A DNA stretch of 64,000 nucleotides from Patescibacteria group bacterium (GTDB lineage: Bacteria > Patescibacteriota > Minisyncoccia > Phycocordibacterales > UBA1550): assembly GCA_038057125.1 (NCBI GenBank), contig JBBUDU010000003.1:15046-79045 (forward strand), in the 5' to 3' direction. A model generated the notes under the pieces. It did not search any database. It was not told the origin of the DNA and saw only the letters and a list, made by a program, of their open reading frames with translations. Shown in pieces: positions 2,487 to 58,409 of the stretch (its first letter is position 1; every line of letters starts with the position of its first letter). The position numbers and the translations under genes are program-made.

Positions 2487-3041
2487 ATGATGAATCCTAT
2501 TAACAACTATCAGTCGAAACAACCTGACATAGGCCCGGATGTGTATAGCGCAATCATCGAAGCACTTTCAGAAAACGCCATTTTTTCTTTAACTGACGAA
2601 AAAGGAGATATTGTTTTTGTAAACAATAAATTTATCGAGATATCTCAATACGCAGTTGATGAGCTCCTTGGGCAAAACCACCGTATCCTAAAGTCTGGGC
2701 ACCAACCGCAGGAGATATTTGTTGACCTCTGGGCGACCATCTCGCGTGGCAAAATCTGGCGCGGTGAAATTAAAAACCGCGCAAAAGACGGCAGCTATTA
2801 CTGGGTCGATGCGACAATCGTCCCTATTCCTGGACCAGACGGGAAGCCAAAAAATTATGCAGCGCTCAGAACCATTATTAATGACAAAAAAGAAATTGAA
2901 GCAAAAAATAAAAAATATGTAGAAGATCTTGAAAAAATAAATAAGTTCACCGTAGACAGGGAACTGAAAATGATAGAATTAAAAAAGGAAATAAAAAAGT
3001 TGGAAGAAAAATTAGCAAAAGGTCTCAAGGTCGGGCCTTAA
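2487..3041 (+). CDS. stand-alone PAS/PAC sensor protein with C-terminal K/E-rich coiled coil
   Basis: PAS/PAC-like core: LLGQNHRILKSG ... IWRGEIKNRAKDGSYYWVDATIVPI. The tail EIEAKNKKYVEDLEKINKF..LKKEIKKLEEKL is coiled-coil-like. Confidence 0.8.
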   Translation: MMNPINNYQSKQPDIGPDVYSAIIEALSENAIFSLTDEKGDIVFVNNKFIEISQYAVDELLGQNHRILKSGHQPQEIFVDLWATISRGKIWRGEIKNRAKDGSYYWVDATIVPIPGPDGKPKNYAALRTIINDKKEIEAKNKKYVEDLEKINKFTVDRELKMIELKKEIKKLEEKLAKGLKVGP

Positions 3042-3067
3042 TGCACCCGCACCCAAGGCCCGACCTT
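3027..3067 (+). terminator. 13-bp-stem hairpin overlapping the PAS gene stop
   Basis: aaggtcgggcctt / aaggcccgacctt with a 15-nt loop. No U-tract. Confidence 0.45.
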
Positions 3068-3102
3068 TGTGCATCATGAATTCTTGTTAATTATTCTGCT
3101 CA

Positions 3103-5487: not shown

Positions 5488-5529
5488 AAAACACCCAGCC
5501 TGTCCATAGACAGGCTGGGTGTTTTTTTG
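5488..5529 (+). terminator. strong intrinsic terminator after the two pilin genes
   Basis: acacccagcctgtc cata gacaggctgggtgt followed by tttttt. Confidence 0.9.
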
Positions 5530-6230: not shown

Positions 6231-6284
6231 TCTATCACTATCATCTATTCGTGGCTATAGCCACGAATAGATGATAGTGATAGA
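6231..6284. repeat. perfect 54-bp palindrome (27-bp arms, no loop), upstream flank of cassette A
   Basis: tctatcactatcatctattcgtggcta | tagccacgaatagatgatagtgataga, verified base by base. Shares the core ACTATCATCTAT with the hairpin at 6913-6956. Confidence 0.95.
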
Positions 6285-6323: not shown

Positions 6324-6878
6324 ATGTTGAATAATTACGATAAAGGCGAGCTCGCCAAAGAGATCCTCATTGGTCTAGCTGCAGGTGGTTTTATTGTTGC
6401 GTGCCTTGCAATGCCAGGACTCACGAAAATCATACCTCTTTTTAAACCAAGTGGAGCAAGAGACAGGTATAGACTAAATCAAGCATTCCAGAAACTTCAC
6501 AATAAAAAACTAATAAGTATTTATACTAAGAATGGTAATGAGGTTGTAGAAATTACTAAGGCAGGTCAAAAAAAGGTTCTTCTGTACAATCTTGATGATA
6601 TGAGACTCATTGTACCCAAGAAATGGGATGGATGGTGGAGGATTGTGATGTTTGATATACCTGAATCAAAACGTCGTGGGCGTGACGCGGTGAGCAGGAA
6701 GATTAAGGAGCTTGGCATGTATCCTATTCAAAAGTCTGTTTTTGTATCGCCGTACATCTGTAAGAATGAGGTTGATTTCATAGGAGAGTTTTTTAATGTG
6801 CGAGAACATATTATTTATATCAAAGCCAAAGAGATAGAAGGCGTACGTGAATTAAAGGAATATTTTGGTATTTTATGA
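6324..6878 (+). CDS. winged-helix + Cas2/PaaX-like domain protein (cassette A)
   Basis: N-terminal hydrophobic stretch ILIGLAAGGFIVACLAMPGL and a wHTH-like middle part (LHNKKLISIYTKNGNEVVEITKAGQKK). The C-terminal WRIVMFDIPESKRRGRDAVSRKIKELGMYPIQKSVFVSPY resembles the Cas2/VapD/PaaX beta-alpha-beta core (xxxYDI..RRR..v.k.L...G...Q.SVF). Paralog of the 15690-16292 gene. Confidence 0.7.
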   Translation: MLNNYDKGELAKEILIGLAAGGFIVACLAMPGLTKIIPLFKPSGARDRYRLNQAFQKLHNKKLISIYTKNGNEVVEITKAGQKKVLLYNLDDMRLIVPKKWDGWWRIVMFDIPESKRRGRDAVSRKIKELGMYPIQKSVFVSPYICKNEVDFIGEFFNVREHIIYIKAKEIEGVRELKEYFGIL

Positions 6879-6883
6879 GTATA

Positions 6884-6909
6884 ATAAAACTCACCGCATA
6901 AAACTCACC
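6884..6909 (+). repeat. direct repeat ATAAAACTCACC x2 (period 14) between the cassette A stop codon and the downstream hairpin
   Basis: ataaaactcacc at 6884-6895 and at 6898-6909. Confidence 0.85.
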
Positions 6910-6912
6910 CCC

Positions 6913-6956
6913 TACTATCATCTATCTGAAGCTATAACTTCAGATAGATGATAGTA
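6913..6956. repeat. 19-bp-stem hairpin, downstream flank of cassette A
   Basis: tactatcatctatctgaag (6913-6931) / cttcagatagatgatagta (6938-6956) with loop ctataa. It can extend through flanking cccc/gggg with one mismatch. Confidence 0.95.
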
Positions 6957-7084
6957 TGGGGAAAAGCTAATCCATTGATTTATCCACAGTTATTTTAGAA
7001 GGGTTATCGCAAATCACGAGTTCATCTTGGAACTAGAATATACTCGTCTTGGACGTGAACTTTTTGCGTGATATACTATTACTA

Positions 7085-10038: not shown

Positions 10039-10530
10039 ATGAACGCTCGTTCCCAAAACGGACTTGTCCGCACGAGTTTTTTGAGGAAAAATTCTGGCGG
10101 ATTTTCACTTCTAGAACTCCTCATAGTTTTGGGGATTACGTCGCTACTCTTGGCGGCTGGTAGCGGTGTGTATCGCAATTTTGGTAAGAATGTGGAACTT
10201 ACTTCCACCTCGCAGGCTATGTCTGCGGATATGCGCCAGATGCAGTCGAAAGCGATGACGGGTGAGAGCAGTCTAAGGTGGGGAGTGAGCCTCATAAATA
10301 GCACCGACGATCGTTATGACCTCTTCTCGCTCACAGACGCTGGAGTGTACGCCACAGACACTACAATCTATCTTCCCAAAAGTATCACATTTTCCGACCC
10401 GACCGAAGGTACTGTCAAAAACATTATTTTCAGCAAGATTTCTGGTAGTACTACTGCCACCACCACGACCATCACATCCGAAGGTTCAATAGCAACAACC
10501 ACAATATCCAGCGTTGGAACTATATATTAG
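10039..10530 (+). CDS. pseudopilin / minor pilin
   Basis: Prepilin motif SGGFSLLELLIVLGITSLLL after a 20-aa basic leader. T-rich C-terminus. Confidence 0.8.
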   Translation: MNARSQNGLVRTSFLRKNSGGFSLLELLIVLGITSLLLAAGSGVYRNFGKNVELTSTSQAMSADMRQMQSKAMTGESSLRWGVSLINSTDDRYDLFSLTDAGVYATDTTIYLPKSITFSDPTEGTVKNIIFSKISGSTTATTTTITSEGSIATTTISSVGTIY

Positions 10531-10531
10531 T

Positions 10532-11035
10532 ATGAAATCTACCAATCAAAATAATTACGCGTTTGTAGATAGCCAAAATGTTAACTTGGCTATCCGTTCG
10601 CTCGGATGGAAATTGGATTTCGCGCGGTTCCGCGTCCATCTAAAGGAAAAATATGGCGTAACGAAAGCTTTTTTGTTTGTTGGTTATGTAGAGAGTAATA
10701 ATGATTTATATATCTCTTTACAGTCAGCAGGGTTTCTATGCATTTTTAAGCCTACACTTGAATATAAGGATGGAACAACTAAGGGTAATTGTGATGCCGA
10801 GTTAGTCCTTCGTGCAATGATAGAGTATCCAAACTACGAAAAAGCAGTGATTGTGACGGGTGACGGGGACTTCTATTGCCTGATACAGTACTTGATAGAA
10901 AAAGATAAATTTGAGCGTGTTATTATTCCAAACTTTTTTAAATACTCAGCTCTTTTAAAGAGGTTTGGACGAAAACAATTAGATTTTATGAACGAATTAA
11001 GAAACAAACTAGAGTATAAAAAAAGGACCCCGTAG
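10532..11035 (+). CDS. NYN-domain (LabA/DUF88-like) predicted RNase
   Basis: NYAFVDSQNVNL ... FLFVGY ... GNCDAELVL ... VIVTGDGDFYCLIQYL matches the NYN/LabA acidic motifs. The ATG is 2 nt after the pseudopilin stop. Confidence 0.8.
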   Translation: MKSTNQNNYAFVDSQNVNLAIRSLGWKLDFARFRVHLKEKYGVTKAFLFVGYVESNNDLYISLQSAGFLCIFKPTLEYKDGTTKGNCDAELVLRAMIEYPNYEKAVIVTGDGDFYCLIQYLIEKDKFERVIIPNFFKYSALLKRFGRKQLDFMNELRNKLEYKKRTP

Positions 11036-15527: not shown

Positions 15528-15569
15528 AATACATGTCCATGCTGAACTAGGCCAGCATCGACATGTATT
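15528..15569 (+). terminator. 17-bp-stem hairpin (one mismatch) ending the pilus operon
   Basis: aatacatgtccatgctg / cagcatcgacatgtatt with loop aactaggc. Confidence 0.55.
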
Positions 15570-15633
15570 AGTTTATCAATTAGAACCTGCCCACTATATT
15601 ACCGCTGGTATAAAATATATCACTCGTATAATA

Positions 15634-15673
15634 ATTGCATAATAAGTTAACGGTCGTTAACTTATTATGCAAT
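15634..15673. repeat. 19-bp-stem hairpin, upstream flank of cassette B
   Basis: attgcataataagttaacg (15634-15652) / cgttaacttattatgcaat (15655-15673). A perfect TATAAT at 15627-15632 sits immediately upstream. Confidence 0.95.
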
Positions 15674-15689
15674 AGGTATCAAGTGGTGT

Positions 15690-16292
15690 ATGATTAAATA
15701 TAGTATGAAAAGCGCAGAGCTAAAACTCAAAAAGAAGATACGAAATTCAAAAATTCAAAAGGTTCTGTTGAATACCCTCTATATCGCTGGTGTTTTAGGC
15801 GTAGCAGTCGTTGCTCCAAAGATGCTATCGCTCTTAAAGCATCTTGATCCCCAAAAGAAAGGAAGCAGAAAATCAAGTGTGAATACTGCAATTAAGAGAC
15901 TTCAAGAGAAGGGGTTGGTTGTCTGGGAGAAGTCTGGTAATGGTATTTTTTTGAGATTAACAAACGAAGGAGAGAGAACACTTAAATTTATTGAGCGCAA
16001 TGAGTTTAAGATTACTAAACCTAAAAAATGGGACGAGAAATGGAGAGTTATAATTTTTGATATAAAAGAAACGAAGAGGGGACTCAGAGATAAATTTAGG
16101 AGAACACTTGTGCGAATAGGATTTCTAAAGTTACAGGATAGTGTTTGGGTGTACCCATATAATTGTGAGGAGCTGATGACCTTATTGAAAGCAGATTTTA
16201 TGATGGGAAAGGAAATTTTGTACATAATTGCTGACTCTATTGAGAACGATAAATGGGCGAAGAACCATTTCGGTCTTAAAACACCTAAGTAG
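15690..16292 (+). CDS. winged-helix + Cas2/PaaX-like domain protein (cassette B)
   Basis: Same architecture as the 6324-6878 product: hydrophobic VLLNTLYIAGVLGVAVVAP, wHTH-like IKRLQEKGLVVWEKSGNGIFLRLTNEGERTL, then KKWDEKWRVIIFDIKETKRGLRDKFRRTLVRIGFLKLQDSVWVYPY. Confidence 0.7.
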   Translation: MIKYSMKSAELKLKKKIRNSKIQKVLLNTLYIAGVLGVAVVAPKMLSLLKHLDPQKKGSRKSSVNTAIKRLQEKGLVVWEKSGNGIFLRLTNEGERTLKFIERNEFKITKPKKWDEKWRVIIFDIKETKRGLRDKFRRTLVRIGFLKLQDSVWVYPYNCEELMTLLKADFMMGKEILYIIADSIENDKWAKNHFGLKTPK

Positions 16293-16314
16293 AACCGCCA
16301 ATATAAAATATACA

Positions 16315-16356
16315 TTCTGCATAATAAATTCACGACCGTGAACTTATTATGCAGAA
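16315..16356. repeat. 20-bp-stem hairpin (one mismatch), downstream flank of cassette B
   Basis: ttctgcataataaattcacg (16315-16334) / cgtgaacttattatgcagaa (16337-16356). Shares TGCATAATAA.TT.ACG with 15634-15673. Confidence 0.95.
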
Positions 16357-16605
16357 GATGGTACAAATGGCGCTTCAGTGTATACGGAAAACTACGCATC
16401 TAGCAGTGTTTCTATATACAGCCGCGCTCGTGGTACTGTGTGGACAGAAGCTACCAATTAGTTTCTTTTTATGTTTTTGTGATGATTATAGAACTCCAGT
16501 AATATTGATGTCTGTCGCCGTGATGTTTTTTGTTTTCTACTATTCCAAATACGCCACTTGGCGAGTGTTTTGACCTATATGTAGAATATTGTTAAGATTC
16601 TTTAT

Positions 16606-20600: not shown

Positions 20601-20632
20601 GAATGGAAGTATAACGCATTTAGTGTAAAACA

Positions 20633-20666
20633 AAACCCCGCCTCTCCATGGAGAGGCGGGGTTTTG
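20633..20666 (-). terminator. intrinsic terminator of cspA
   Basis: aaaaccccgcctctccatggagaggcggggtttt, symmetric with A/T tracts on both sides. Confidence 0.85.
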
Positions 20667-20675
20667 TGAGCAGTG

Positions 20676-24288: not shown

Positions 24289-24330
24289 AAAACACCTCCG
24301 CCTGTCAGCTGACAGGCGGAGGTGTTTTTA
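24289..24330 (-). terminator. 36-bp perfect palindrome terminator
   Basis: aacacctccgcctgtcag|ctgacaggcggaggtgtt flanked by A and T runs. Confidence 0.8.
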
Positions 24331-58152: not shown

Positions 58153-58165
58153 TAACCTGAATAAA

Positions 58166-58197
58166 AAAACCCGGAAACAAAAAGGGTGTTTCCGGGT
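58166..58197 (-). terminator. 11-bp-stem hairpin whose U-tract lies on the minus strand
   Basis: acccggaaaca aaaaggg tgtttccgggt. The A7 run upstream on plus equals U7 downstream on minus. Confidence 0.65.
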
Positions 58198-58409
58198 GGC
58201 CATGCCTTTTGGGTAAAAGTGGTGGCCGAAGGTTGCTAGCGCGCAGCGCCAAGGGAGGATAAACGCCGCAGTCAAACTAGCAATTTGATAATAGCAGAAT
58301 AGCTTTATTTTGTCAATATTACATAGTATTACATAGGACAGTCCTTGGTAGTATCCGCGAGTACGGAGGGGCTTGCTATTTCTTTTGTTTCGTGTAAAAT
58401 ACAGGAACT

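Follow-up and report, generated by a model that had tools for sequence, protein, structure and literature searches.

The question raised by this locus is why a small gene should stand between two copies of a palindrome of about 40 bp, and why a paralog of that gene should stand between two copies of another. Both genes, here called A and B, lie on a 64,000-nucleotide stretch of the 145-kb contig JBBUDU010000003.1 (the window, by which we mean the whole of this stretch), obtained from a Hainich groundwater metagenome and belonging to a Paceibacteria/Yonathbacteria-like organism of the candidate phyla radiation (CPR). Gene B is found at the end of a row of type IV pilus genes, and each gene with its two palindromes is referred to below as cassette A or B. 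The explanation that we favour, with a probability of about 0.55, is that the gene B product, a protein that we call mini-PaaX, would bind as a dimer to its own ~40-bp palindromes, the upstream copy serving as an autoregulatory operator.

The gene B protein consists of a probable PaaX-type winged helix fused to a Cas2-like PaaX_M domain, without the ligand domain of PaaX. It matched the Pfam family PaaX_M (PF20803; E 1.1e-20, 73.9 bits against a cut-off of 24), which is also precomputed on nearly all of its homologs, and its N-terminus gave weak winged-helix matches (PF07848 at 17.2 bits, below the cut-off of 24.8). The family profile had as its top match PaaX (Protein Data Bank (PDB) entry 8A39), with which it aligned over residues 59–154, from the recognition helix through the Cas2-like domain, and also matched the Sulfolobus Cas2 3EXC (E 0.022). 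In the AlphaFold2 (AF2) model, the Cas2-like half was confident and the N-terminal half poor; a Foldseek search with this model returned PaaX 8A39 as the top match, followed by the PaaX-like structures 3KFW and 3L09, PadR-type winged helices and Cas2 (5ZYF and 3EXC). No match to PaaX_C (PF08223) was obtained for gene B and the protein stops about 15 residues past PaaX_M; the ligand-binding domain is therefore missing. The NCBIfam model for PaaX (TIGR02277) scored 60 bits against a cut-off of 264.55, and that for Cas2 (TIGR01573) scored 24.0 bits with B and 23.2 with A, just below its cut-off of 24.5. The products of genes A and B are 29% identical over 179 residues (E 7e-27), and gene B is indeed the diverged paralog described in a preliminary description of this DNA. 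A membrane anchor was considered for the hydrophobic N-terminal stretch and rejected by eye: judging from the N-terminal sequence motifs of PaaX, this stretch would form the helices with which the winged helix begins, in a part of the protein where the model has low confidence and which precedes the alignment with 8A39 (from residue 59).

The sequence details given in the preliminary description were all correct, and the hairpin-gene-hairpin layout of cassette B was confirmed (15634–15673 and 16315–16356; Table 1). An open reading frame (ORF) from 15690 to 16292 exists, as had been reported, but its start is less likely to be used, since an identical database protein (195 amino acids, aa) and the family alignments begin at the ATG at 15705. 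With this start, the gap between the upstream palindrome and gene B is 31 nt rather than the 16 nt first given; the downstream gap of 22 nt was right. The core shared by the two B palindromes, TGCATAATAARTTMAC, has four matches in the 64 kb, one per arm and only there, against 0.31 expected, and none of 100 shuffles reached four. As single strands, the B palindromes fold with −16 and −14.5 kcal/mol (z about −9). The two cassette A copies have the outer arm ACTATCATCTAT in common, and the inner arm of the downstream copy differs by compensated changes. The B core differs in sequence from that of A, but it was too much to call the two unrelated, as the palindromes of the two cassettes belong to two centre classes of one architecture. 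Between the B copies, the compensated difference TTAAC/GTTAA versus TTCAC/GTGAA is present, together with a second, uncompensated left-arm change (G to A) that leaves A.C on the plus strand. An upstream/downstream difference is also found in a 78%-identical ortholog at locus L214 (TTAAC upstream, CTCAC downstream), and we consider the compensated difference to be real and old.

This compensation had been taken as an argument for a hairpin or cruciform. However, the half-sites of a two-fold symmetric homodimer predict the same, and the stem mismatches of 65 palindromes showed no wobble or strand bias (G.T 13, A.C 8, other 16), so a hairpin or cruciform is not singled out. These results bear on an RNA-level reading, in which the Cas2-like domain would be a ribonuclease (RNase) that binds or cuts hairpins in the 5' and 3' untranslated regions. 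Some Cas2 and VapD proteins have been reported as RNases, and, read on the minus strand, the lone mismatch in the downstream hairpin of cassette B would become G.U; an RNA hairpin with G.U wobble was nevertheless rejected on account of the missing strand bias. A known RNA family was rejected likewise, since Rfam 15 contained no family matching at the gathering threshold and returned only generic microRNA-precursor hairpins, far below threshold and for cassette A only.

The layout seen in the window is a trait of the whole family. The mini-PaaX family comprises 798 clusters at 50% identity (E ≤ 1e-30). In species-representative genomes it occupies more than 550 loci, almost all of them from Paceibacteria/Parcubacteria and often two or three per genome. 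Annotation pipelines label its members ‘Cas2’ or ‘PaaX’, and no paper on the family was found in the literature on PaaX or Cas2-like proteins with palindromes or CPR. We surveyed 80 homologous loci together with the two cassettes of the window (81 sequences, 82 genes, ~466 kb), defining a strong palindrome by a score of at least 12 and a loop of at most 4, and a gene-end zone of ~140 bp, which amounted to ~24 kb in all. This zone held 74 strong palindromes, against 56 in the remaining ~440 kb, the latter being mostly GC-rich terminators with A/T runs, and with relaxed detection a family-type centre was found in at least one flank of 68 of the 82 genes. The centres fall into two classes, CG-RY-CG (GT/AC in 35, AT in 5 and GC in 3) and GCTATAGC (20). 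Counted from the centre, symmetry is 94–100% up to position 18 and has dropped to background by positions 21–23, so the unit has a defined length of 38–40 bp. Positions 11–17 are the most strictly symmetric and yet vary in sequence between loci, and mismatches gather at positions 5–8. The two palindromes of one gene form a matched pair, as had been proposed from the window alone: the median identity of upstream and downstream arms (positions 5–19) is 0.90, against 0.40 between loci, and the arms of paralogs in one genome differ. A separate observation was made at locus L029 (JBBTTL010000035.1, gene 2501–3088), where the outer arms TTGGTGCA are common to both palindromes and the centres, GCGATAGC versus GCGGTCGC, are of different classes, so that a single pair can combine two centre types.

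It could be argued that these palindromes do no more than terminate transcription or insulate a gene that stands alone, and that nothing links them specifically to its product. Solo copies, with no family gene within 300 bp, lie directly past stop codons and often between convergent genes, some of them with A and T runs (L161 and L194), canonical terminators in this genome are likewise perfect palindromes of 38–40 bp, and the minus strand of 16315–16356 was called terminator-like. On the gene strand, neither B palindrome was so called. A T-rich tail accompanies 3 of 72 gene-flanking palindromes versus 11 of 56 others, median GC is 0.36 versus 0.43, and at L111 and L194 a canonical terminator adjoins the palindrome. 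Moreover, independent terminators would not have common arms on either side of a gene, and no covariation with residues of the gene product would be expected of them. By their sequence features, the flanking palindromes are evidently not plain terminators, and we regard this explanation as highly improbable.

The covariation of protein and palindrome half-sites, a test proposed in the preliminary description, was positive: the outer arms vary with the winged helix, and the centres with the Cas2-like domain, above all with its residue 150. In partial Mantel tests, which, like the pair counts below, remove shared ancestry only in part, the outer arm was correlated with the winged helix when the Cas2-like domain was controlled (r 0.19, p 0.0005), and it was not correlated with the Cas2-like domain when the winged helix was controlled (r 0.06, p 0.13). 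Conversely, the centre was correlated with the Cas2-like domain when the winged helix was controlled (r 0.14, p 0.0005), and not with the winged helix when the Cas2-like domain was controlled (r 0.02, p 0.31). The top alignment column for centre class is residue 150, which occupies the x position of LQ-x-SVW in a hairpin turn of the Cas2-like domain (mutual information 0.66 bits, against 0.43 for the second-best column). Of the 27 genes with GCTATAGC, 25 have D here; of the 41 CG-RY-CG genes, 30 have N and the others D (4), H (3), K (2), Q or R. The two centre classes are interleaved in the similarity tree, and 21 of 26 non-overlapping closest cross-class pairs set D against non-D. Such a double dissociation would be expected of a dimer whose winged helices contact the outer arms and whose Cas2-like core covers the centre. 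We therefore propose that a homodimer of the gene B protein would bind its own ~40-bp palindrome, the two winged helices reading the locus-specific outer arms at positions ~9–19 from the centre, and the Cas2-like dimer sitting over the conserved centre (CG-RY-CG in B, GCTATAGC in A).

The position of the promoter is compatible with regulation from the upstream copy. The preliminary description had taken a TATAAT next to the upstream palindrome (15627–15632) as a promoter from which transcription would start inside the palindrome. This hexamer is present, but it has no −35 partner in a consensus scan, and orthologs do not conserve it. The likely −10 element of gene B is instead a TATGAT on the other side of the palindrome (Table 1); the same hexamer is found 9–13 bp past the upstream palindrome in the window, L214 and L008, and −10-like hexamers are enriched family-wide after upstream but not downstream palindromes. 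In many homologs, TATAAT-N6-ATG follows the right arm or lies inside it; in the several where it lies inside, a leaderless message is implied. Since the upstream copy overlaps or abuts the core promoter, its use as an autoregulatory operator is plausible, with the palindrome on the −35 side of the promoter rather than around the transcription start. In this position, bound protein would be expected to repress gene B. The downstream copy would be a second cognate site closing the unit, and we can only guess at its role, perhaps in a repression loop or as a roadblock against transcription from the convergent side. The same geometry counts against the RNA-level reading introduced above: with the likely −10 element past the upstream palindrome or inside its right arm, the mRNA would lack a full 5' hairpin, and the covariation with the winged helix fits the reading of duplex DNA. 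RNA elements, like plain terminators, fit poorly as an explanation, and we give the RNA-level reading hardly any credence.

Table 1. Coordinates of the two cassettes and associated features in the window.
Feature	Position	Strand	Description
Upstream palindrome, cassette A	6231..6284	.	54 bp, perfect, centre GCTATAGC
Gene A	6324..6878	+	184-aa paralog of B, 29% identity
Downstream palindrome, cassette A	6908..6961	.	54 bp, 93% symmetric, centre GCTATAAC
Additional hairpin, between pilin gene and cassette B	15528..15569	.	17-nt arms, 8-nt loop, no T-run; probably outside the unit; possibly a decayed palindrome
TATAAT of the preliminary description	15627..15632	+	Present; unsupported as promoter
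Upstream palindrome, cassette B	15634..15673	.	19-nt arms, 100% complementary, centre CG-GT-CG; proposed cognate site and operator
TATGAT, likely −10 of gene B	15687..15692	+	13 bp after palindrome, 12 bp before ATG 15705; putative
Gene B	15705..16292	+	195 aa; alternative in-frame ATG 15690; winged helix ~20–100 and Cas2-like PaaX_M ~112–185; no PaaX_C
Downstream palindrome, cassette B	16315..16356	.	20-nt arms, 95% complementary, one A.C mismatch, centre CG-AC-CG; proposed second cognate site

The history of the cassette can be followed at the pilin-MacB junction of related genomes. Orthologs of gene B (63–78% identity) are found in the same place after the same pilin genes, and both of their palindromes change in parallel; at L214, the upstream palindrome has the same sequence as in the window and the downstream one is the matching CTCAC variant. 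At the occupied junctions (L006, L009 and L214), gene B is followed by a MacB/FtsX permease gene in convergent orientation. In four relatives (L204, L208, L212 and L213), the pilin gene is followed directly by MacB, with neither a mini-PaaX gene nor a family-type palindrome: the two genes adjoin without a spacer in L212 and L213, and are separated by a canonical terminator in L208 and by another repeat in L204. At L205 and L206 the pilin gene leads straight to a flavin adenine dinucleotide (FAD) oxidase, at L207 with one extra gene between them, and at L209 a single degenerate B-like palindrome lies between pilin and MacB. The preliminary description had asked whether palindromes occupy the same positions in genomes that lack the gene; with L209 as the nearest case, essentially none do. 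As judged from these junctions, the gene and its palindromes are gained or lost as one unit at this site. A different repeat of ~100 bp, starting attattagcgacgtaga, was observed at the pilin-MacB spot of cassette-lacking relatives, twice in L204 (2963–3315) and once in L211 (3005–3156).

The junction thus exists in three states (occupied, empty without a palindrome, and empty with one degenerate palindrome), as might be expected of an excisable cassette, in which site-specific or homologous recombination between the flanking palindromes would remove or insert the gene with one palindrome, the solo copies being scars or landing sites. Two loci, L018 and L165, hold three palindrome copies with duplicated flanking DNA, and the neighbours of family genes are otherwise unrelated housekeeping genes. 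However, the unit encodes no recombinase, orthologs at 63–78% identity keep their position, so that movement is rare at best, and most empty sites have no palindrome. The GT/AC centres of a pair are inverted at 16 loci and direct at 9, which is not different from random and fits neither target-site duplication nor terminal inverted repeats; centre polarity was therefore rejected as a sign of inversion, excision or target duplication. A phage-borne or viral element was also rejected, no family member being found among the viral contigs of IMG/VR, as was integration at tRNA genes, which lie near only a few of 60 loci. We consider an excisable cassette improbable.

The two loci with three copies can be described as follows. 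At L018 (LCOP01000030.1, 990–2232), three copies of one palindrome (starts 1000, 1410 and 2049) surround the family gene with a 136-bp duplication, and a tRNA-Leu follows copy 1 and a tRNA-like fragment copy 3; this layout suggests a palindrome-bounded segmental duplication. At L165 (290–1300), three tandem AT-rich repeats of ~40 bp lie between copies 2 and 3.

Palindromes of the same kind are also found away from family genes. Three solos (L194, L101 and L123) are identical over 36 bp to the upstream copy of the window and L214, those of L090 and L169 to the L214 downstream copy, and that of L135 to the L008/L124 downstream copy from the same sample. The term ‘locus-specific’, used in the preliminary description, is therefore too strong: the arms are matched per gene, but the same 36–40-bp sequences stand alone behind ordinary genes in relatives. 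A metagenome scan with the pattern AATAAG-N4-CGRYCG-N4-CTTATT, from which copies at contig ends were left out, yielded 43 fully symmetric solo copies versus 8 beside a family gene, although these counts also include generic terminators, some of them from non-CPR genomes, because the pattern selects palindromes by construction. The solos were located just past the stop codons of ordinary genes, 19 between convergent, 20 between tandem and 4 between divergent genes, and tandem arrangements with palindromes whose arms are of another type are frequent (L111, L161, L122 and L179). The L111 contig is syntenic with the window over 51–58.7 kb (78% nucleotide identity) and has two tandem palindromes where the window (~58160–58200) has none. 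No solo copy was found in the 64-kb window and about four were found in the ~440 kb around the 80 other family genes; window counterparts of the L169 and L194 solo sites were not found, their neighbouring genes not lying within the 64 kb. In a separate observation, a non-family gene for an FAD-linked oxidase (GlcD-like, 558 aa) at L194 lies between two family-type palindromes of different classes (912–965 and 2811–2864), one with the B-type centre CG-AC-CG and the other with GCTATAGC and a T-run.

These solos raise the possibility of a partnership resembling that of repetitive extragenic palindromic (REP) sequences and REP-associated tyrosine transposases (RAYTs), in which the palindromes would be a small population of dispersed, slowly mobile elements, cut or mobilised by the Cas2-like nuclease fold of the gene that they flank, itself vertically inherited. 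CPR would then have invented the REPIN-RAYT life-style independently, with a Cas2-fold/winged-helix protein that recognises, and perhaps cuts and spreads, its own 40-bp palindromes and whose gene stays between two of them. A gene flanked on both sides by its own palindrome type, with types differing by paralog, recalls RAYTs with their own REPINs, and the arms shared by solos and gene-flanking copies, the placement of solos past 3' ends, the tandem clusters of different arm types and the turnover seen at L111 all point in this direction. So do the invariant D124 of the Cas2-like domain and the perfect symmetry of up to 64 bp, which suggests a copying mechanism rather than selection for binding alone. 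On the other hand, the population is small in the sequences surveyed, the metagenome pattern would also retrieve terminators, PaaX_M proteins are not known to have nuclease or transposition activity, the Cas2 motifs are missing from E. coli PaaX, and the palindromes are perfect and two-fold symmetric, in contrast to the strand-specific, imperfect REP hairpins. We consider this partnership possible but unlikely.

Some of the same observations must be set against the proposal that mini-PaaX is a repressor binding its own palindromes. Perfect symmetry over whole stretches of 34–64 bp exceeds the needs of a dimeric regulator, and the 50–64 bp found in some copies are left unaccounted for by a simple operator. 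The Cas2 β1 aspartate D124 and the motif Q149-x-S151 (Q149-x-S151-V-W) are invariant in 82 of 82 family sequences, a hint of catalysis, for which a protein acting solely as a repressor would have no use. Solos behind the 3' ends of housekeeping genes, and almost never in divergent promoter regions, would be odd for the regulon of a repressor. The downstream copy is present in 18 of 32 cases with a convergent next gene versus 14 of 44 with a co-directional one. Furthermore, gene B of the window is itself an exception to the rule for residue 150, as it combines D150 with a CG-RY-CG centre, and the incomplete removal of shared ancestry from the covariation tests has been mentioned above. A related idea, that the downstream copy is simply the operator of the next gene, was rejected, because this copy is at least as frequent before convergent genes.

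Several other features of the window were noted. The additional hairpin upstream of cassette B (15528–15569) had been interpreted as the terminator of the pilus operon. The hairpin exists, but it has no T-run, was not called terminator-like and is absent from L214; it may be a decayed family-type palindrome, since the sequence of its outer arms, ACATGTAT, is similar to that of palindromes of the GCTATAGC class, for instance at L018. Canonical bidirectional terminators at 5488–5525, 20630–20667 and 24289–24328 are perfect palindromes of 38–40 bp with GC-rich stems and A4/T4 flanks, equal in length to the family palindromes, of other composition and lacking the conserved centre. The start-to-start spacing of the copies is nearly equal in the two diverged cassettes, 677 bp in A (6237–6278/6914–6955) and 682 bp in B (15636–15671/16318–16353). 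A 74-aa ORF (16349–16573), a gene call in the source assembly and by its look a small membrane protein, has its ATG inside the right arm of the downstream B palindrome. Within the pilin/pseudopilin row, a 173-aa ORF (10514–11035) overlaps the end of the preceding pseudopilin ORF and, judged by eye, may encode an NYN/PIN-like nuclease domain. A dedicated regulator of type IV pili was considered for gene B and rejected, as only the close orthologs at L006–L009 and L214 lie by pilin genes and the others lie among unrelated housekeeping genes.

These results matter for annotation, as the labels ‘Cas2’ and ‘PaaX’ both mislead: mini-PaaX proteins are neither. They also matter for gene regulation in CPR, where several mini-PaaX paralogs are found in genomes of less than 1 Mb with very few regulators. 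The recognition code predicted here assigns the outer arms to the winged helix and, within the Cas2-like domain, makes residue 150 the reader of the centre type. Should the predicted binding prove right, this would be the first CPR family of self-contained regulator/operator pairs, and the Cas2 fold would take part in the sequence-specific reading of a palindrome. If the palindromes are instead mobile partners, they would represent a new kind of long-lived intragenomic replicator, and a free-standing, Cas2-like reader of palindromes in a REPIN-RAYT-like system would bear on how Cas2 came to act on CRISPR repeats.

Among known systems, the mobile ones resemble the cassettes in part. RAYTs are flanked by their own REPINs with co-evolution-like specificity (PMC3337134), and mini-PaaX is likewise a single-copy, vertically inherited gene flanked by its own palindromic repeats, of paralog-specific types; the solo copies in extragenic 3' regions, sometimes clustered and with turnover between relatives, may correspond to the dispersed repeats of the RAYT systems. 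However, the mini-PaaX domains are a winged helix and PaaX_M only, and not an HUH/Y1 (IS200-like) transposase. The palindromes are perfect with a conserved centre, whereas REPINs are imperfect hairpins with a GTAG or CGTC tag. The copy number of the palindromes appears to be low; solos with identical arms are known from related contigs and one shared sample. An insertion sequence or transposon differs further, as each end of a mini-PaaX unit is a complete palindrome, the window copies are 29% identical paralogs and orthologs are syntenic. With CRISPR Cas2, mini-PaaX shares the ferredoxin-like fold, the β1 aspartate and the Q-x-S-V-aromatic motif; unlike Cas2, it is fused to a winged helix, and its repeats are two palindromes around a gene and not an array. 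Neither cas1 nor a CRISPR array was found in the window or in the neighbourhoods seen.

Autoregulated repressors are closer. Those of the MarR/PadR type have a winged-helix dimer, a two-fold symmetric site over their own promoter and paralog-specific operators, all of which are predicted here, but the mini-PaaX site is twice as long, with a third zone at the centre that tracks a domain other than the helix-turn-helix, and there is a second site past the stop codon and no conserved adjacent target gene. The nearest relative is PaaX, the phenylacetyl-CoA-responsive repressor of E. coli and Pseudomonas (PDB 8A39), which also has a Cas2-like middle domain, preceded by an N-terminal winged helix as is probable for mini-PaaX. 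The E. coli protein recognises a 39-bp inverted repeat (TGATTC-N27-GAATCA) and, by steric hindrance, blocks transcription from the promoter of its own gene (PMC9493321). The inverted-repeat sites are alike in length (~39–40 bp), the palindrome being here of 38–42 bp and 13 bp upstream of a conserved TATGAT, and repression of the own promoter is known for PaaX and merely predicted for mini-PaaX. There are also clear differences: mini-PaaX has ~190 aa and no C-terminal ligand domain, versus ~310 aa, and it keeps the Cas2 motifs (D124 and Q149-x-S151) that E. coli PaaX has lost; its site is palindromic throughout rather than two hexamers and is found on both sides of the gene; several paralogs occur per genome, each with its own arms; and no paa genes were found in the neighbourhood in the window or among the 155 neighbours of the 82 homologs. 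Mini-PaaX is therefore a truncated variant of the PaaX kind, which its long symmetric site fits, and its new features are the pair of proposed cognate palindromes with which genes throughout a large CPR family flank themselves, the paralog-specific arms, and a predicted recognition code in which the Cas2-like domain contributes a residue.

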